Counted from the first letter of the whole stretch, positions 1 through 23,210 are shown. The stretch is DNA of 23,451 bases, filler included, from an uncultured virus (IMG/VR IMGVR_UViG_2049941000_000079) (7 parts of one record of this genome joined end to end with filler, not necessarily neighbours in it); one strand, 5' to 3'. Numbers and translations are program-made. The notes: a model not told the origin generated them from the sequence alone.

Positions 1-402
1 AGTAGCAAGCCTGTAATCTATAAAGAGAAAAGATATGAAAGCGTTATTGATTTTGCTAATGAAGTAGGTATCTCTATTAGAACAGCTTGCGAGTGGTTAA
101 AAAGAGGTTTTAACCCACAAGGAATACCTTGCAGATACGAAAATGATACAAAGGAATTTAACTTTGTCAACCGACACAAAGCACGAAATGAAGCAAAAGC
201 AAAGACCGTAATTGTTAATGATGTAGAGTATAAGAATTGTGATGAAGCAAGTAAAATGCTTAATATTCCAAAAAGTACACTCTATTCATACTTACAAGGT
301 AAAAGACATAGTACAAAATATATATGTAGATATGGCAATCAGCAGCCAAGCCTTACGAAATCCGATAACAGTAGTAAGGAAGGTTCAACGACTAATGGGT
401 GA
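1..402 (+). CDS. Intron-encoded homing endonuclease, C-terminal part with two NUMOD1-like HTH repeats (GIY-YIG or HNH catalytic domain outside window)
   Basis: Frame 1 open from base 1 to TGA 400-402, not in the ORF track: SSKPVIYKEKRYESVIDFANEVGISIRTACEWLKRG...KTVIVNDVEYKNCDEASKMLNIPKSTLYSYLQGKR...GNQQPS...EGSTTNG*. The tail reads through intron elements Q and R. Confidence 0.85.
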   Translation, partial: SSKPVIYKEKRYESVIDFANEVGISIRTACEWLKRGFNPQGIPCRYENDTKEFNFVNRHKARNEAKAKTVIVNDVEYKNCDEASKMLNIPKSTLYSYLQGKRHSTKYICRYGNQQPSLTKSDNSSKEGSTTNG

Positions 403-530
403 GGACGGAAACCAATAAACCCGACACGAGTTCCCGACCCCTACTCTAATAGAGAGGGTGAAGATATAGTCTGAACTTACGATGAAAACGTAAGATGTAT
501 AGGATAAAGAGCCTATACGATAACATAATG
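1..530 (+). ncRNA. Group I self-splicing intron, 3' part (5' end outside window), IA-like
   Basis: Core elements in canonical order: Q AATCAGCAGCC 337-347; P6a CCTTAC 351-356/GTAAGG 374-379; R GGTTCAACGACTA 382-394; P8 hairpin ~438-459; S AAGATATAGTCT 461-472 (P7 = GACTA 390-394/TAGTC 467-471); P9 CTTACG 476-481/CGTAAG 489-494; P9.1 GTATAGG 497-503/CCTATAC 512-518; terminal G at 530, followed by a start-less open frame. Confidence 0.93.
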
Positions 531-928
531 GCTGTGACAATCGGTCAAATATTGCAGACCTCAAGTACACGGTCGCAACGGAAAATTGCGCAGATCGTAC
601 AGCGGCATATCAGAACACACAGGCGATCATCGAAGCAGGAAACAGAAACAGTCAGGCAATCCTTGACAAACTCTGTCAGCTTGAACTCGACAATGTTAAG
701 CAGGATAACGCGAACCTTCGCACACAGCTTAATATGGCGAACCTTGCGGCAAGTCAGACGGCACAGACAGCGGAGCTTCGTACTGCAAACGCAACACAGT
801 TAAACAACCTCGTATCAGAACTTCGCGCTTGTCCTATCCCGGCACAGCCCGTGTATGGGTCACAGCCGATCTTCACTTGCGGCGGTAACAACGGTTGCGG
901 ATGTAGCGGAAACGCTTTCTATAACTGA
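531..928 (+). CDS. 3' exon of a conserved Cys-rich coiled-coil phage protein of unknown function
   Basis: In-frame TAA at 521-523, then (C)CDNRSNIADLKYTVATENCADRTAAYQNTQAIIEAGNRNSQAILDKLCQLE...CPIPAQPVYG...GCGCSGNAFYN*. No ATG until 734. Track ORF 734..928 is only its tail. Confidence 0.85.
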
Positions 929-944
929 ATAAGGGGGTATTGCT

Positions 945-1400
945 ATGGCACAGTATGTAACGACAAATGACGTTTTGGTGGCCTTAAACAACACCATTCC
1001 GTTCAATCACGTTTCTATCCCTTGCAATACGGGTAATGTGATACCCATTGCATCAGGGGTTCTTACTATCAAAGGCAATACTCGTAACCGTTTTGCAAGA
1101 TACCGTGTAACATTGCAGGGTAACATAGCCGTTCCCGAAGGTGGGGATGTCACACCGATTGCTTTAGGCATTGCCATCAACGGGGCGGTTATCCCCGAAA
1201 GTGTAGCAATATTCACCCCGGCGGCGGCAGAAGAGTACGGACACATCAACACAGAAGCAGTTATAACTATCCCTTGCGGATGTTGTGCTTCGGTATCGGC
1301 TGTCTATGTTGACGGCACAGAAGATGATCCGGCAACCACACCTACACCGTCAATCACGGTAAGACGTGAAGCGTCAATAACGGTTGAGAGAATAGCATAG
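945..1400 (+). CDS. Hypothetical beta-rich protein, possibly BclA-C/C1q-like sandwich
   Basis: 151 aa; RBS AAGGGGGT upstream; alternating hydrophobic strands and an IPCGCC motif. The fold is inference. Confidence 0.85.
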   Translation: MAQYVTTNDVLVALNNTIPFNHVSIPCNTGNVIPIASGVLTIKGNTRNRFARYRVTLQGNIAVPEGGDVTPIALGIAINGAVIPESVAIFTPAAAEEYGHINTEAVITIPCGCCASVSAVYVDGTEDDPATTPTPSITVRREASITVERIA

Positions 1401-1414
1401 AAAGGAGAACAAGG

Positions 1415-1843
1415 ATGCACAGATTACAGATGTATGAAAATCTCCATGATATGCTTGAACAGGAGATTTCAAAGATTCAGAGCAAAGGGGAACTTGATCC
1501 GCAGAGTTTGGATAACCTTGATAAACTCATGCGTACCGTCAAAAACACGGACAAGTGTATTGATCGTGAAAGTGGCGGTCAGTCATACGGCAACCGTATG
1601 AGTTACGGACGGTATGATATGATGCCTATGGAGTCATACGGTATGAGCATGGGAAGAGATAGTGACGGCAGATATAGCCGCGACAACTTTCGTGATTCTT
1701 CGTTTCGAGGGGGATCGTATGGGCAATCCTACGAATACAGTAGGGATAACGCGCCGATAATGCAGAGACTTGAATCCATGATGAACGAAGCACGGAATGA
1801 CAGCGAACGTCAGGCTATCAAAGATTTTGTGAATAGGATGTAA
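1415..1843 (+). CDS. Hypothetical protein: helical ends flanking a Ser/Tyr/Gly/Arg low-complexity linker (RDSDGRYSR)
   Basis: 142 aa; RBS GAAAGGAG; last gene before a terminator hairpin. Confidence 0.85.
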   Translation: MHRLQMYENLHDMLEQEISKIQSKGELDPQSLDNLDKLMRTVKNTDKCIDRESGGQSYGNRMSYGRYDMMPMESYGMSMGRDSDGRYSRDNFRDSSFRGGSYGQSYEYSRDNAPIMQRLESMMNEARNDSERQAIKDFVNRM

Positions 1844-1846
1844 AAC

Positions 1847-1872
1847 AAAGGGCGGCAGAAATGCCGTCCTTT
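1847..1872 (+). terminator. Probable intrinsic terminator
   Basis: AAAGGGCGGCA-GAAA-TGCCGTCCTTT hairpin (GNRA loop) just after the stop at 1843; short U tract. Confidence 0.7.
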
Positions 1873-1904
1873 CCCTTGACAACATTTGAACAATTTGGTA
1901 TGAG

Positions 1905-2012
1905 AAGTCCATGTTGGTGTTCCCTTCAAATGACACCAACGCACGTAACCCCCTTGTTGAGAGCCGCAATCGTGACCCCTAAAAAAGAGAGCCACGTTGC
2001 GGTTCTTTTTTT
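1905..2012 (+). ncRNA. Candidate ~105-nt small RNA
   Basis: TTGACA 1876-1881, 17-bp spacer, imperfect -10 TATGAG 1899-1904; hairpin GTTGGTGT 1913-1920/ACACCAAC 1933-1940; terminal hairpin AGAGCCGCAATCGTG/CACGTTGCGGTTCT followed by a T run to 2012. Confidence 0.5.
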
Positions 2013-2020
2013 ACCACAGC

Positions 2021-2042
2021 ACTAGTGCCATACTAGAGCCAT
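2021..2042 (+). repeat. Tandem 11-bp direct repeat, candidate integrase arm-type sites
   Basis: ACTAGTGCCAT 2021-2031 and ACTAGAGCCAT 2032-2042 in non-coding DNA. Confidence 0.55.
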
Positions 2043-2142
2043 ATACCCTTCAAACCCGCATAAATACGGCATTTACCACCTTGATTACAAATACGCACAA
2101 ACCCCCAAAACACGCAGTTTTGCGGTTTTATNNNNNNNNNNT

Positions 2143-2244
2143 ATAAAAGCCGCTTGCAATGAATTAAATGTTTGTTGGGATGTTATTGCTAATTGGTGCA
2201 AAAAAGGGATAAATCCTTACGGGGCGAAATGTCGTTACAAAGAT
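2143..2244 (+). CDS. Fragment of a second homing-endonuclease HTH repeat or allele
   Basis: IKAACNELNVCWDVIANWCKKGINPYGAKCRYKD aligns with VIDFANEVGISIRTACEWLKRGFNPQGIPCRYEN in ORF 1..402; bounded by Ns. Confidence 0.7.
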
Positions 2245-2288
2245 NNNNNNNNNNNNNNNNNNNNNNNNNNNNNNNNNNNNNNNNNNNN

Positions 2289-2300
2289 TTAATTAATTAA
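2289..2300. other. Artificial six-frame-stop contig linker TTAATTAATTAA in N runs (also 5922-5933, 13774-13785, 20852-20863, 22643-22654, 23090-23101)
   Basis: Identical 12-mer flanked by N runs six times. Confidence 0.97.
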
Positions 2301-2405
2301 NNNNNNNNNNNNNNNNNNNNNNNNNNNNNNNNNNNNNNNNNNNNTATATCGACACAACTATCAAGATAAACTTTAATGATTTGAAAAGAAAATTTATTTT
2401 AGGGG

Positions 2406-2448
2406 TTGACACACAACCTTCAAAGTGGTAAGGTACACAATGAAGGTT
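2406..2448 (+). promoter_or_regulatory. Early lytic sigmaA promoter with overlapping operator-like repeats
   Basis: TTGACA 2406-2411, 17 bp, TG-n-TAAGGT 2429-2434; AACCTTCA 2415-2422 is inverted to TGAAGGTT 2441-2448; lies upstream of the Cro-like gene. Confidence 0.7.
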
Positions 2449-2477
2449 ACAAAATGTAGTGTACGAAGGAGCAAGAA

Positions 2478-2714
2478 ATGACTTTTAGATACAACAAGTT
2501 GAGAGGACGCATAGTCGAAATATTTGGATCACAAAAGGCTTTTGCTGATGCAATCGGCATTTCAGAATCAACAGTAGCATCCAAATTATCAGGTCGGTTA
2601 AAGTTTTCGCAAGACGAAGTTCTTACATGGGCAAATGCTCTTAAAATTCTCAAAGAAGATATAGGTTTATATTTTTTTGACACCGAACCTTCAAACGACG
2701 AAGGGAAAGAATGA
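2478..2714 (+). CDS. DUF739-family Cro-like HTH regulator
   Basis: MTFRYNKLRGRIVEIFGSQKAFADAIGISE signature; RBS GAAGGAG. Confidence 0.88.
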   Translation: MTFRYNKLRGRIVEIFGSQKAFADAIGISESTVASKLSGRLKFSQDEVLTWANALKILKEDIGLYFFDTEPSNDEGKE

Positions 2715-2727
2715 AGGAGATCACGGC

Positions 2728-3420
2728 ATGAACGAATTGTTAAAAGTCAACGCAGAGAATCAGACAGTATCGGCAAGGGAATTACATAAGGCGTTAGAGA
2801 TAGAAAAACGCTTTAGTGCATGGTTTGAAGCAAACTCACAGGGCTTTGTAGAAGGAGAAGATTTTACAAGCGTACTTTCAGGTACGGTTGTAAACAACGG
2901 GGCATACAGGGAATTAACAGACTACGCTTGTTCAATAGATATGGCAAAGCATATCTGCCTTATGAGCCGGACAGAAAAGGGTAAACAGTGCAGACAGTAC
3001 CTTATAGACCTTGAAAAAGCATGGAACACCCCGGAGCAGGTTTTTGCAAGAGCCTTAAAAATGGCTGATGAAACCATTAACAGACTTAAAGCGGATATGG
3101 AACATATGAAGCCGAAGGTGGAGTTCTTTGATGCGGTAACTGACAGCAAGGACGCAATCTCAATGGCTGATGTAGCAAAGGTACTTAACTTTGGTAAGGG
3201 TCGGAACACTCTGTTTAAGATACTCCGCAAAGAGAAAATCCTTATGAAAGATAACAGACCTTATCAGGAATACATTGATCGTGGTTTGTTTAGGGTTGTC
3301 GAACAGAAGTTTGACAAAGGTTACGGAGAAGTCGGTATCAACATCAAGACGTTGGTGTTTCAGAAGGGTGTTGACTACATCCGCAGGATTCTTGAAAAGA
3401 ACGGATATTACGATGAGTGA
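2728..3420 (+). CDS. Phage antirepressor (AntA/AntB N-terminal plus KilAC C-terminal domain)
   Basis: VSARELHKALE...FSAWF...MAKHICLMSRTEKGKQCRQYLIDLEKAWN; PKVEFFDAV...GRNTLFKILR...PYQEYIDRGLF. Start moved to ATG 2728 (RBS AAGGAG). Confidence 0.92.
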   Translation: MNELLKVNAENQTVSARELHKALEIEKRFSAWFEANSQGFVEGEDFTSVLSGTVVNNGAYRELTDYACSIDMAKHICLMSRTEKGKQCRQYLIDLEKAWNTPEQVFARALKMADETINRLKADMEHMKPKVEFFDAVTDSKDAISMADVAKVLNFGKGRNTLFKILRKEKILMKDNRPYQEYIDRGLFRVVEQKFDKGYGEVGINIKTLVFQKGVDYIRRILEKNGYYDE

Positions 3421-3589
3421 ACCAAGACGGATCACAATAAAAGAAGCGGCTGAATACTTGGAAATGCCCGAACAAGGGGTTAGGGAGCATATCAAGAAAG
3501 GATATTTCGGAAGCTTTTACGGAAAGAAAGGCCATAGAGTCTACTACGTAACGGATGAACAAGTACGCAAGTTTAAGAAGGGGAACTAG
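3413..3589 (+). CDS. Excisionase-like HTH DNA-binding protein
   Basis: MSEPRRITIKEAAEYLEMPEQGVREHIKKG; 58 aa; overlaps the antirepressor stop. Confidence 0.75.
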   Translation: MSEPRRITIKEAAEYLEMPEQGVREHIKKGYFGSFYGKKGHRVYYVTDEQVRKFKKGN

Positions 3590-5877: not shown

Positions 5878-5977
5878 NNNNNNNNNNNNNNNNNNNNNNN
5901 NNNNNNNNNNNNNNNNNNNNNTTAATTAATTAANNNNNNNNNNNNNNNNNNNNNNNNNNNNNNNNNNNNNNNNNNNN

Positions 5978-7895: not shown

Positions 7896-8883
7896 NNNNN
7901 NNNNNNNNNNNNNNNNNNNNNNNNNNNNNNNNNNNNNNNNNNNNNNNNNNNNNNNNNNNNNNNNNNNNNNNNNNNNNNNNNNNNNNNNNNNNNNNNNNNN
8001 NNNNNNNNNNNNNNNNNNNNNNNNNNNNNNNNNNNNNNNNNNNNNNNNNNNNNNNNNNNNNNNNNNNNNNNNNNNNNNNNNNNNNNNNNNNNNNNNNNNN
8101 NNNNNNNNNNNNNNNNNNNNNNNNNNNNNNNNNNNNNNNNNNNNNNNNNNNNNNNNNNNNNNNNNNNNNNNNNNNNNNNNNNNNNNNNNNNNNNNNNNNN
8201 NNNNNNNNNNNNNNNNNNNNNNNNNNNNNNNNNNNNNNNNNNNNNNNNNNNNNNNNNNNNNNNNNNNNNNNNNNNNNNNNNNNNNNNNNNNNNNNNNNNN
8301 NNNNNNNNNNNNNNNNNNNNNNNNNNNNNNNNNNNNNNNNNNNNNNNNNNNNNNNNNNNNNNNNNNNNNNNNNNNNNNNNNNNNNNNNNNNNNNNNNNNN
8401 NNNNNNNNNNNNNNNNNNNNNNNNNNNNNNNNNNNNNNNNNNNNNNNNNNNNNNNNNNNNNNNNNNNNNNNNNNNNNNNNNNNNNNNNNNNNNNNNNNNN
8501 NNNNNNNNNNNNNNNNNNNNNNNNNNNNNNNNNNNNNNNNNNNNNNNNNNNNNNNNNNNNNNNNNNNNNNNNNNNNNNNNNNNNNNNNNNNNNNNNNNNN
8601 NNNNNNNNNNNNNNNNNNNNNNNNNNNNNNNNNNNNNNNNNNNNNNNNNNNNNNNNNNNNNNNNNNNNNNNNNNNNNNNNNNNNNNNNNNNNNNNNNNNN
8701 NNNNNNNNNNNNNNNNNNNNNNNNNNNNNNNNNNNNNNNNNNNNNNNNNNNNNNNNNNNNNNNNNNNNNNNNNNNNNNNNNNNNNNNNNNNNNNNNNNNN
8801 NNNNNNNNNNNNNNNNNNNNNNNNNNNNNNNNNNAAAGATTCTGTGATTACCAGAACAAGAAGGTGTTAGAGAGGTTAAATAA

Positions 8884-13729: not shown

Positions 13730-13829
13730 NNNNNNNNNNNNNNNNNNNNNNNNNNNNNNNNNNNNNNNNNNNNTTAATTAATTAANNNNNNNNNNNNNNN
13801 NNNNNNNNNNNNNNNNNNNNNNNNNNNNN

Positions 13830-17949: not shown

Positions 17950-18282
17950 ATGTCGATGAGAATAGACGCTCCGGAAGAGCAGAAGCGATTCTACAAGTCA
18001 AAAGCATGGCAGCGATGCCGCGCAGCTTATATCTCTTTTGTCGGTGGTTTATGTGAGAGATGTCTTGCAAGGGGATTCGTCGTTCCGGGATATATAGTTC
18101 ATCACAGGGAGTATATCGATGTGAACAACATCACGGATCCGAACGTCTTATTGTCTTTTGATAACTTGGAACTCTTATGTCAGAAGTGTCACAATCAAGA
18201 ACACTTCGAAGAGCACAAACGATACGCAATCAATGCGGACGGCTCTGTCTCGCTCATCCCCCCCGGTCACGGCTCAAAATAG
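17950..18282 (+). CDS. HNH endonuclease, packaging-associated (HK97 gp74-like)
   Basis: FYKSKAWQRCR...GLCERC...IVHH...DNLELLCQKCHNQEH. Confidence 0.9.
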   Translation: MSMRIDAPEEQKRFYKSKAWQRCRAAYISFVGGLCERCLARGFVVPGYIVHHREYIDVNNITDPNVLLSFDNLELLCQKCHNQEHFEEHKRYAINADGSVSLIPPGHGSK

Positions 18283-18310
18283 GGCCTTTTGGAGAAGGGG
18301 GTGTAGCTTG

Positions 18311-18775
18311 ATGGGGGACGATGTAGCCCCGACACTGATCAGCAGATATGAATCACAGACAGGAAACACACAGGATAAATTGAACGTCATGCAGAACGAA
18401 CAAAACACAGTGGTCAGAAGATTAACTCCTCTCGAATGCGAACGATTACAGGGATATCCGGACGGATGGACAGACATCGGAGAGTGGATAGACACTAAAG
18501 GAAAAAAACATAAGGACGCAGACAGTCCGAGATATAAAGCACTCGGAAATAGTATCGCCCTTCCGTTTTGGGAATGGATGGCGGGAAGAATGGTCAACCA
18601 ACTCAAAAAAGACGGAACAGAAAATCCGACAATGGCAAGCTTATTTGATGGAATCGGCGGCTTTCCGCTTGTGTTCAGCCGATGCGGATGTTCTCCGGTA
18701 TGGGCAAGCGAGATCGAGGAATTCCCGATCGCGGTAACAAAAAGACATTTTGATGAAAGGAGCGGACATGAATGA
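18311..18775 (+). CDS. C5-cytosine DNA methyltransferase portion with motif order IX-X-I-II-III
   Basis: RRLTPLECERLQGYPD (IX), YKALGNSIA (X), ASLFDGIGGF (I), WASEIEEFPIAVTKRHF (II-III); RBS-like AAGGGGGTG before ATG 18311. Confidence 0.85.
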   Translation: MGDDVAPTLISRYESQTGNTQDKLNVMQNEQNTVVRRLTPLECERLQGYPDGWTDIGEWIDTKGKKHKDADSPRYKALGNSIALPFWEWMAGRMVNQLKKDGTENPTMASLFDGIGGFPLVFSRCGCSPVWASEIEEFPIAVTKRHFDERSGHE

Positions 18776-20807: not shown

Positions 20808-21033
20808 NNNNNNNNNNNNNNNNNNNNNNNNNNNNNNNNNNNNNNNNNNNNTTAATTAATTAANNNNNNNNNNNNNNNNNNNNNNNNNNNNNNNNNNNNN
20901 NNNNNNNAGATCAAATTGACCCTGATAAAAAAGGGATTTATCACACATATACTTGCAGAAAATGTAAAGCAAGGATAAGTGTTTACGAACTAAATCAGAC
21001 CCAGAGAGAAGAACTGATAGAGAGAACTACAAC

Positions 21034-21966
21034 GTGAGAATCGGACTAATAGATGTAGATGGACATAATTATCCAAATTTACCGCTGATGAAGATAAGTG
21101 CGTACCACAAGTCGCAGGGAGATCACGTTGAATGGTATGAGCCGATGTTTTCAGGGCATATGGATAAGGTTTATATGAGTAAGGTTTTCTCGTTCACGCC
21201 GGACTACGAATATTTCATTGATGCAGACGAGATCATAAAAGGTGGTACGGGATATGCGATTTCTTTAGGGGGGGGGCGAGAGCATTACGATAAATCAAAG
21301 GATAAGCCGCTTCCTGATGAGGTAGAGCATATATACCCTGATTATTCGCTCTATCCTGAATACACGAAGGACACGGCATACGGATTCTTAACAAGGGGAT
21401 GTCCTAGAGGTTGCGGATTTTGTCATGTGGCGGCAAAGGAAGGTAAGTGTTCATATAAGGTAGCGGATTTATCGGAGTTTTGGCGAGGACAGAAGAACAT
21501 AGTGTTGTGTGATCCGAACATCTTGGCTTGTAAAGATCACATAGAGCTTCTTCAACAACTTGCGGATAGTAAGGCAACAGTAAACTTCAATCAAGGTTTA
21601 GACATCCGGCTGATAACAGATAAAAACCTTGAATTGCTGAAACAAATTAAGTTAGATCACATACATTTTGCGTTTGATCGGTGGCAAGACAAAGACATCA
21701 TTGAACCGAGATTACGGAAGTTCATAAAAGAAACCGGGTACAGCAGGGGCAAAGGAAGGGTATTAGTTTACATACTATGCAATTATGACACAACGATTGA
21801 ACAAGATATGTACCGCATACAGTTGTGTAGGGAGTTAAACATAAGTCCATACCCGATGATTTATGACAAGGAACACGCTGATCCGATATATCGAAAGATT
21901 CAGCGTTGGTGTAACAATATAGTGTTTTGGAGCGTACCGAGGTTTGAGGACTACGCATATAAGTGA
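21034..21966 (+). CDS. Radical SAM protein
   Basis: TRGCPRGCGFC (CxxxCxxC); N-terminal PNLPLMKIS...GGTG segment; FNQGLDIRL; GTG start. Confidence 0.9.
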   Translation: MRIGLIDVDGHNYPNLPLMKISAYHKSQGDHVEWYEPMFSGHMDKVYMSKVFSFTPDYEYFIDADEIIKGGTGYAISLGGGREHYDKSKDKPLPDEVEHIYPDYSLYPEYTKDTAYGFLTRGCPRGCGFCHVAAKEGKCSYKVADLSEFWRGQKNIVLCDPNILACKDHIELLQQLADSKATVNFNQGLDIRLITDKNLELLKQIKLDHIHFAFDRWQDKDIIEPRLRKFIKETGYSRGKGRVLVYILCNYDTTIEQDMYRIQLCRELNISPYPMIYDKEHADPIYRKIQRWCNNIVFWSVPRFEDYAYK

Positions 21967-22598: not shown

Positions 22599-22707
22599 NN
22601 NNNNNNNNNNNNNNNNNNNNNNNNNNNNNNNNNNNNNNNNNNTTAATTAATTAANNNNNNNNNNNNNNNNNNNNNNNNNNNNNNNNNNNNNNNNNNNNGG
22701 ATAAGGA

Positions 22708-22902: not shown

Positions 22903-23210
22903 TCACCCCTTTTTGTCAAGTTCCTTTTTCACTACATTATTTATGAAACTGTTAACGGATAGCCCCGTTGCTTTGATCCGTTCTTTAGTTCCCTTTGGTA
23001 GTGTAACACTTACTCGATCAAAACTTCCTTTTATATATTCGTTTTNNNNNNNNNNNNNNNNNNNNNNNNNNNNNNNNNNNNNNNNNNNNTTAATTAATTA
23101 ANNNNNNNNNNNNNNNNNNNNNNNNNNNNNNNNNNNNNNNNNNNNCTTTGGTATTGTTTTTTCTGCCGTTCGAGCGCGGCTAGTGCTTTTTTTTCTGTCT
23201 CTTTGTCCAT
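22903..23210 (-). CDS. Ribbon-helix-helix-like DNA-binding protein split by a linker
   Basis: 23210-23146 MDKETEKKALAALERQKKQYQ; 23043-22903 NEYIKGSFDRVSVTLPKGTKERIKATGLSVNSFINNVVKKELDKKG*. Confidence 0.7.

Follow-up and report, generated by a model that had tools for sequence, protein, structure and literature searches.

A probable IA-like mobile group I intron splits a cysteine codon of a conserved gene in temperate rumen phages

The question raised by this locus is whether a phage gene of the phrog_16490 family is interrupted by a group I intron of which only the 3′ part was captured. The DNA analysed, referred to here as the window, is a 23,451-nucleotide stretch (filler included) from an uncultured virus (IMG/VR IMGVR_UViG_2049941000_000079), and the features at issue occupy its first 928 positions. 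A preliminary description had reported a Q-P6-R-P8-S-P9-P9.1 core ending in G530; each of these elements was found at its reported place (Table 1). As set out below, window 1–530 is very probably the 3′ part of a mobile group I intron of about 1,292 nt and IA-like architecture, residing in the phrog_16490 gene of a temperate rumen siphophage.

Table 1. Predicted features of the intron, its reading frame and the flanking exon in the window
Feature	Positions	Strand	Basis
Endonuclease, last 133 codons and TGA (DNA-binding half)	1..402	+	67% identity to L126 endonuclease
P5a 3′ strand (325–331) and P5 3′ strand (334–335)	325..335	+	Pair with L202 5′ strands
Q element: P4 3′ strand (340–344), P6 5′ strand (346–347)	336..347	+	RF00028 consensus alignment
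P6a hairpin	351..379	+	6/6 pairs changed on both sides, 100% of cells paired
R element: P6 3′ strand (382–383), P7 5′ strand (390–394)	382..394	+	Invariant in 14/14 sequences
P7.1-type helix between P7 and P3′ (396–399/420–423)	396..423	+	4/4 pairs compensatory
P3 3′ strand	433..437	+	50/50 pairs with upstream strands
P8 hairpin	439..458	+	5/7 pairs compensatory, 85% of cells paired
S element, including P7 3′ strand (467–471)	460..472	+	Invariant; matches RF00028 consensus GAAGAUAUAGUC
P9 hairpin	477..493	+	4/5 pairs compensatory, 100% of cells paired
P9.1 hairpin	497..518	+	5/7 pairs compensatory, 100% of cells paired
3′ tail with terminal ωG530; 3′ splice site 530/531	519..530	+	Tail conserved in relatives
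Exon 2 of phrog_16490 gene: last two bases of split Cys codon, 131 codons, stop	531..928	+	phrog_16490 profile
Misplaced endonuclease ORF fragment	2142..2244	+	True place about 50 nt upstream of window position 1

Window 325–530 contains the 3′ strands of P5a, P5, P4 and P3 and complete P6, P6a, P7, P7.1, P8, P9 and P9.1 helices, with P7 formed by 390–394 and 467–471 and with P5a and P5 closing the loop that carries the endonuclease ORF. For the structure alignment, window 306–542 was combined with 13 relatives (14 sequences), and helices P6 to P9.1 were written by hand. The modelled helices were paired in 97.2% of 493 cells, and 24 of the 36 pairs showed changes on both sides. When the alignment was shuffled, the observed value was reached by 0 of 500 shuffles on four of five measures and by 2 of 500 on the fifth; when the partners were slid by 1–3 columns, pairing fell to 30–44%. 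RNAalifold independently recovered P6a, P7, P7.1, P8, P9 and P9.1. The lower paired fraction of P8 stems from ragged alignment of its loop, and because P7 and P6 are invariant, covariation is uninformative either way for these two helices. The long-range helices were counted by script in nine complete relatives and the pair formed by the window and L202, the contig that supplies its upstream half (10 sequences). Pairs were formed in 50/50 cases for P3, 50/50 for P4, 20/20 for P5 and 68/70 for P5a (188/190), with alternative pair types in each helix, among them UCGGG/CCCGA, UUCGG/CCGAA and CUGGG/CCCAG in P3 and a change from UGCUG/CAGCA to UACUG/CAGUA in P4. These counts indicate that the whole catalytic core covaries as RNA. 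At its 3′ end, the GAUAACA...UG tail runs straight into exon 2 in 14/14 aligned sequences, exon homology beginning at 531/533.

The predicted architecture is IA-like, the P7.1 helix between P7 and the P3 3′ strand being the extra-helix feature of subgroup IA; a short hairpin inside this region was read by eye and was left out of the counts. In the covariance-model check that the preliminary description had proposed, RF00028 matched window 203–493 in a 1-kb search (48.1 bits, E = 5.7e-11). The gathering score of this model is 50 bits, and a whole-window scan at the gathering threshold lists nothing because the window copy, 5′-truncated, falls 1.9 bits short, the 5′ half of the intron lying outside the window. 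The alignment to the model is good from the Q element onward, and between 203 and about 330 coding sequence has been forced into the model, with many non-pairs and no real structure. Apart from the truncation, the window copy has the P3–P9 core of RF00028 introns with their R element GUUCAACGACUA and S element GAAGAUAUAGUC, and a complete relative (L158) reaches 73 bits.

Downstream of G530 the sequence reads GC TGT GAC AAT CGG. The frame to which these bases belong has no stop between 524 and the TGA at 926–928. The ORF list gives only the ATG-started part, 734–928, in agreement with the earlier remark that a start-less frame had been missed. The encoded exon-2 protein matches the phrog_16490 profile over positions 140–283 of 286 (E = 1.5e-12), and its residues 1–131 are 81% identical to the continuous gene of an intron-less locus (L001), which itself matches positions 7–281 (E = 5.1e-28). 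For this 131-residue protein, 375 confirmed relatives were found in IMG/VR, and a large protein library yielded 472 clusters at 50% identity, mostly of proteins of 240–330 aa in which the match begins at residue 110–230 in most cases. The phrog_16490 family comprises at least 8,000 clusters at 90% identity, the few that carry names being called hypothetical, and the preliminary description's view of the target gene as widespread and conserved is borne out by these counts.

Homologous loci were compared in two sets, the best 80 viral loci of the 375 relatives and 48 loci from representative bacterial genomes and MAGs. Homologues span the site as single genes of about 250–330 aa. An upstream frame of 99–229 codons was present at 79 of the 80 viral loci, the exception (L011) having only 36 nt of upstream DNA, and the frame was continuous at 47 of the 48 genome loci, the upstream extensions in the two sets together spanning about 90–230 codons, so homologues do not start at the methionine of position 734. 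Intron-less alleles, which the preliminary description had suggested looking for, are abundant. Three consecutive cysteine codons run straight through the junction in 76 of the 80 viral loci, nearly all as CCC(D/E)NR, and in 41 of the 48 genome loci. Intron-like DNA at the junction was found in none of the 80 best viral loci; the one interrupted genome locus (L234, a MAG) carries the S motif 73 nt upstream, and its intron tail meets the exon as in the window. The intron is thus a rare insertion in a common gene, and CCC(D/E)NR marks the most constrained stretch of the phrog_16490 protein.

The missing 5′ half was supplied by L202, which was found by scanning JGI metagenome contigs with a protein pattern from the window ORF. 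Its last 57 nt are identical to window 1–57 (100%), and it provides 762 nt of intron upstream of the window, so that the composite intron measures 1,292 nt and the composite endonuclease 327 aa, the same size as that of L126. In P5a, GUCUAUG of L202 pairs with the allele-specific UGUAGAU of the window, and a match of this kind makes a good case that both halves come from a single allele. Direct overlap between L202 and the window is limited to the 57 identical nucleotides plus a 96-nt match (99%) to the misplaced endonuclease fragment. Besides the 5′ splice site, the guide GGCACU, P2 and the 5′ strands of P3, P4, P5 and P5a, L202 contains a GGAGG ribosome-binding site and the first 194 codons of the endonuclease. 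Exon 1 consists of 127 codons from Met 1540 plus T1921, ends in ...CAGCAGTGCT and matches the phrog_16490 profile over positions 2–129 (E = 5.9e-12). The recovered contig thus carries an in-frame 5′ exon ending in T, as had been predicted from the window.

The intron is placed between T, the first base of the second Cys codon in the conserved CCC(D/E)NR motif, and the GC that completes this codon; when the exon sequences are joined, one open frame that matches the intron-less alleles is restored. The preliminary description was right that T|GC would rebuild a cysteine codon on joining; its C-C-D-N-R motif has to be corrected, since the rebuilt sequence holds three cysteines (Q-Q-C-C-C-D-N-R) and not the two that are visible in the window. 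The last six bases of exon 1, AGUGCU, are complementary to the single guide GGCACU with a terminal U·G pair, and in 9/9 complete relatives the 5′ part of the intron holds exactly one 6-mer that fully complements the six closing bases of exon 1, again with a terminal U·G. Bases flanking the guide on its 5′ side can pair with the first four bases of exon 2 (GCUG/CAGU, GUUG/CAAU, GUGA/UCAU); P10 is nevertheless plausible rather than proven, because the spacing varies and L099 forms only 3 of the 4 pairs. Read past the splice site, the exon-1 frame stays open for 25 intron codons until a UAA in the P2 loop ends it; this holds for L126 and L202 alike.

From this arrangement we infer how splicing and homing would proceed. 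The pre-mRNA would fold, and an external guanosine would attack just 3′ of the U that ends exon 1 and is kept in place by P1. Exon 1, once released, would in turn attack just 3′ of G530 while P10 holds exon 2 (GCUG), and UGC would be rebuilt. The loop of P5a carries the 327-codon frame of a putative I-TevI-like endonuclease with a GGAGG ribosome-binding site of its own. A GIY-YIG domain is predicted at the N-terminus, NUMOD1/HTH repeats come after it, and the last approximately 25 codons are the same RNA as P5a′-P4′-P6-P6a-P7-P7.1. This enzyme would cut intron-less alleles near the CCC site, and repair would copy the intron in. Of two metatranscriptome runs, one (X15) covers only 655–1222 and the other (X16) gave pieces of 33–39 nt on conserved stretches; neither yielded a joint or a loose end at 530/531, and both are neutral on splicing.

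The endonuclease ORF of the window, which the preliminary description does not mention, is open from the first base, and its TGA (400–402) lies inside P7.1; from about 325 on, its codons double as ribozyme core. The ORF is 67% identical to residues 195–326 of the 327-aa L126 endonuclease. Against phrog_314, annotated 'homing endonuclease', E values were 3e-4 for the window ORF and 3.7e-18 for the L126 endonuclease. In Pfam, the window ORF gave HTH and NUMOD1 matches that were both sub-threshold. For NUMOD1 (PF07453, cut-off 22.8 bits), the window ORF scored 16.8 and L126 26.8 bits, and 4 of 8 family members had E ≤ 0.1. Because the GIY-YIG domain lies upstream of the window, it was scored on relatives: for PF01541 (GIY-YIG, cut-off 22.6), L147 reached 25.2 bits and L126 14 bits (E = 0.064), with 2/8 members at E ≤ 0.1, and the LEM-3 GIY-YIG model matched 3/8 members at E ≤ 0.1. 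The Pfam I-TevI_DNA-bd model gave weak matches (5/8 members at E ≤ 0.1, best 4.3e-4). All 7 full-length relatives begin with M(x)YYVYEW...IYVGKG and reach ...NQQPS; four run on to ...EGSTTN, and the other three terminate immediately ahead of the R element. Since it is the Q and R elements that are translated into these C-termini, the last approximately 25 codons of the ORF belong to the ribozyme core.

A single-sequence PDB search with the endonuclease retrieved no I-TevI and only terminal transferase matches at E of about 0.5, and a PDB profile search likewise retrieved no I-TevI, with I-HmuI at E = 0.25; engineered gp41 entries in the profile search were rejected as chance matches through GGSGG linkers. 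An endonuclease peptide pattern run against IMG/VR gave no confirmed relative among 34 candidate stretches. Taken as a sequence-based assignment, an I-TevI-like GIY-YIG/NUMOD enzyme is suggested, the catalytic domain being moderately supported. Upstream of the endonuclease start, a promoter-like TTTACT-17-TATAAT site is conserved in L202, L126 and L137; it is a hint only, because a scan finds 5 sites where shuffled sequence gives 4.0 ± 2.1.

When IMG/VR was scanned for DNA motifs of the window from the R to the S element (GUUCAACGACUA being the R element of the RF00028-type core), at least 119 stretches were recovered. L126 is 76% identical to window 79–543, and an exon-2 homologue follows directly 3′ of its intron; similar to it, among the matches listed, are L158, L159, L103, L137, L179, L191, L170 and L183. 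The protein of the intron-less locus L016 aligns with L126 in two blocks, residues 1–155 (92%, 1395–1856) and 157–278 (93%, 3153–3518), separated by about 1.3 kb. This break identifies residue 156 as the split Cys codon and places the L126 intron at 1858–3150 (1,293 nt). ORF-less copies also occur: a complete one of 364 nt in L158 (2791–3154), which is the copy scoring 73 bits with RF00028, and one of 279 nt in L155. ORF-bearing L126 scores 36.5 bits, full copies scoring low because a 1-kb ORF sits in the P5a loop.

Two insertion registers were distinguished. At six loci, exon AGUGCU is matched by guide GG(C/U)ACU, and this group, which includes the window, splits the Cys-2 codon after its first base. 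At three loci (L099, L147 and L155), exon GCUGCU is matched by guide GGCAGC, and the Cys-3 codon is split after its first base, 3 nt downstream. P3 differs between the two groups in a compensatory manner. The ORF-less derivatives (364 and 279 nt) and the one-codon-shifted sister lineage show what looks, from these comparisons, like a family evolving as a mobile element. We lean slightly towards a more specific reading, in which the family records a natural one-codon retargeting of a ribozyme-plus-endonuclease unit within a (UGY)3 repeat, with the P3 and P10 partners changed and the endonuclease C-terminus fixed in the core.

How far the joint between intron and exon can be trusted has to be judged against the make-up of the window, which is a stitched pseudomolecule with sixteen N10 gaps, one run of 939 N and seven linker joints (each 44 N, TTAATTAATTAA, 44 N). 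An assembly artefact at the junction would be in keeping with this make-up and with the endonuclease fragment at 2142–2244, which is out of place. That fragment, bordered by an N10 gap and a contig linker, ends the first piece of the window (1–2244), and 96 of its 103 nt (2142–2237) match L202 2539–2634 at 99%, with window position 1 corresponding to L202 2684. The joint, however, recurs in a metagenome contig (L201), in a contig of run X5 from a different study and in 13 related loci. L201 covers window 280–1882 at 90% identity and is identical to the window letter-for-letter in the 3′ part of the intron and across the joint, and the X5 contig spans window 1–640. Because it is bridged by these independent contigs, the joint is, on the assembled sequences, taken to be real DNA despite the stitching, and we regard an artefact as extremely improbable. 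A 1,347-nt contig of run X3, which probably comes from the source sample, agrees with window 1–526 without any difference and continues 821 nt further upstream. Loose ends at 551 and 554 (runs X5 and X3) read ...TGT TGC TGT GA(G/A) AAC... and are diverged intron-less alleles within those runs. A megablast search with window 1–3000 found no GenBank phage, the first 42 nt of the window had no match in IMG/VR, and a 36-mer from it had none in the JGI metagenomes.

With the joint accepted, the same DNA could still be read without any intron, as a free-standing endonuclease gene with a separate small gene, beginning at Met 734, downstream of it; ORF callers give only 734–928, and the window copy lies under the Rfam gathering score. 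This reading deserves almost no weight, since homologues cross the site as single genes, window 531–733 is conserved as protein in the alignment to L001, the RNA covaries, and exon 1 is present upstream in L202 and 9 relatives. A decayed relic that no longer splices, in a dead copy of the host gene, would fit the rarity of the intron (present at 1 of 48 genome loci and at none of the best 80 viral loci), a rarity that would suit a costly insertion as well, and splicing of the window intron is deduced rather than observed. Set against decay are the state of the window copy, in which every core helix is intact and the P5a 3′ strand finds compensatory partner bases in L202, and the open frames of both exons and of the entire 327-codon endonuclease. 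Near-identical copies in another study's run and in a separate metagenome contig, together with the presence of the same intron in a CheckV-complete 49.8-kb phage (G001), also speak against a relic, and we consider it unlikely. An intact mobile group I intron in the phrog_16490 gene remains the reading adopted here.

The setting of the intron is that of a temperate phage. The other genes of the window encode an anti-repressor (Ant), the recombinase RecT, an exonuclease, DnaD- and DnaC-like helicase loaders, DNA methyltransferases and an HNH endonuclease, and are the early region of such a phage. In G001, the record of L126, which has terminal repeats, the gene carrying the intron sits between the tail-module end and the integrase, flanked by phrog_3754, phrog_21718, phrog_22984 and phrog_20016, all families of unknown function. 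Some of the rumen temperate phages were binned with Selenomonadaceae.

The host protein had no match in Pfam or NCBIfam, and in the ESM Atlas it matched hypothetical viral clusters only. AlphaFold2, run with 89 sequences, returned a short hydrophobic helix (33–42), one 158-residue helix (71–228) and a Cys-rich tail (pTM 0.35); pLDDT was above 90 over approximately 140–225, and the CCC motif lies inside the long helix. Helix 33–42 is probably a membrane helix in this model. A spanin-like role, considered for the N-terminal membrane helix, the long helix and the diderm nature of some Selenomonadaceae hosts, was dropped, the next gene showing no lipoprotein signal by eye.

Group I introns that sit in phage genes and encode GIY-YIG enzymes form a classic class. 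The td intron of phage T4 is a group IA intron in a protein-coding gene and encodes I-TevI, a two-domain GIY-YIG endonuclease with a C-terminal HTH DNA-binding domain; translation of td exon 1 stops early in the intron. The window family shares with this system the combination of a phage intron of IA-like architecture, a putative GIY-YIG/HTH endonuclease and an early exon-1 stop within the intron, and differs from it in the target gene, in the loop that holds the ORF and in its repeated NUMOD1/HTH modules. The closest of the descriptions compared is the group IA intron in nrdF of the Bacillus cereus group, which has P6a, P7.1, P7.2 and P9.1 and encodes the GIY-YIG endonuclease I-BthII (PMC2248736). 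In the nrdF intron, too, the GIY-YIG ORF begins in a peripheral loop and extends across P7 and the R element, and variants of other strains have lost most of the endonuclease gene (PMC2248736). The nrdF ORF is described there as starting in the P6a loop, whereas that of the window family starts in the P5a loop and runs through P4′, P6 and P6a; the nrdF host gene is a ribonucleotide reductase gene on a bacterial chromosome (PMC2248736), whereas the gene interrupted here is a phage gene of unknown function.

Full-text searches on group I introns in combination with rumen phage, GIY-YIG prophage or Selenomonas found no description of this intron or its target. The novelty lies in the target gene, in a one-codon shift of register accompanied by a matching guide, and in how far ORF and core overlap. 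The window intron is nonetheless, for all its good support, an ordinary representative of an already known kind of mobile element, and no new class of biology is involved.

With this intron, the list of phage group I introns gains a target gene and a habitat, the temperate phages of the rumen, and its presence explains why gene callers split or miss the phrog_16490 gene. The two registers one codon apart, together with the ORF-less derivatives, form a compact natural series for the study of intron mobility. If the retargeting reading is correct, the CCC motif of an abundant coiled-coil membrane protein of rumen phages would be a recurrent homing hotspot, and the paired lineages would offer a ready system for following the joint shift of guide sequence and endonuclease specificity.

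The CCC motif, three Cys codons at the insertion site, hosts two sister intron lineages whose insertion sites lie one codon apart. The difference between their guides, the internal sequences that pair with the end of exon 1 in P1, fits the respective sites. In L131, L148 and the third-Cys lineage the P1 loop measures just ~11 nt; in some other alleles it is enlarged by additional hairpins. Reading through from exon 1 into the P1-loop stretch yields alike 25-residue tails (LKK...VGT...A*) in L126 and L158. Two loci carry ORF-less derivatives, and in L158 the P5a loop keeps a remnant of the ribosome-binding site and start of the endonuclease.

Features of the window and of loci with related introns
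Feature	Location	Details
Third-Cys-codon lineage	L099, L147, L155 (also L186, L169)	guide GGCAGC
Second-Cys-codon lineage	L126, L158, L159, L137, L131, L148	guide GG(C/U)ACU
Enlarged P1 loop	L126 1858-1920; L202 1922-1985; L159; L137	45-60 nt of additional hairpins
ORF-less intron derivative	L158 2791-3154	
ORF-less intron derivative	L155	279-nt intron
Gene directly 3′ of host gene	window 945-1400; relatives e.g. L126 3573-4052	phrog_20016, ~150 aa
103-nt island	window 2142-2244	between N10 gap and linker; codes for portion of intron endonuclease
Stretches with linkers or gaps	window 2132-2344, 5878-5977, 13730-13829, 20808-20907, 22599-22698, 23046-23145	
Single 939-N run	window 7896-8834	

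The window is a pseudomolecule in which contigs are linked via 44 N, TTAATTAATTAA and 44 N; it also contains sixteen 10-N scaffold gaps. The order of genes across the linkers need not be the true one. The 103-nt island matches 2539-2634 of L202, the contig that supplies exon 1 and the 5′ half of the intron, at 99%, and its true place lies some 50 nt 5′ of the window's first base, so this scaffold piece is misplaced.

In the window and in relatives, the phrog_20016 gene invariably comes after that of the host protein, and together they appear to form a fixed pair. On visual inspection, the phrog_20016 protein sequence may call to mind BclA/C1q-type domains. An HNH endonuclease, a DNA methyltransferase and a radical-SAM protein (phrog_9298 match, E 1e-101) are also encoded (window 17950-18279, 18158-18772 and 21034-21966), all within one phage early/accessory region.

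In L127, L188, L156/L093 and L190, introns share P9.1 and the GAUAACA tail, followed by unrelated exon sequences. Relatives of the intron therefore occupy other phage genes.
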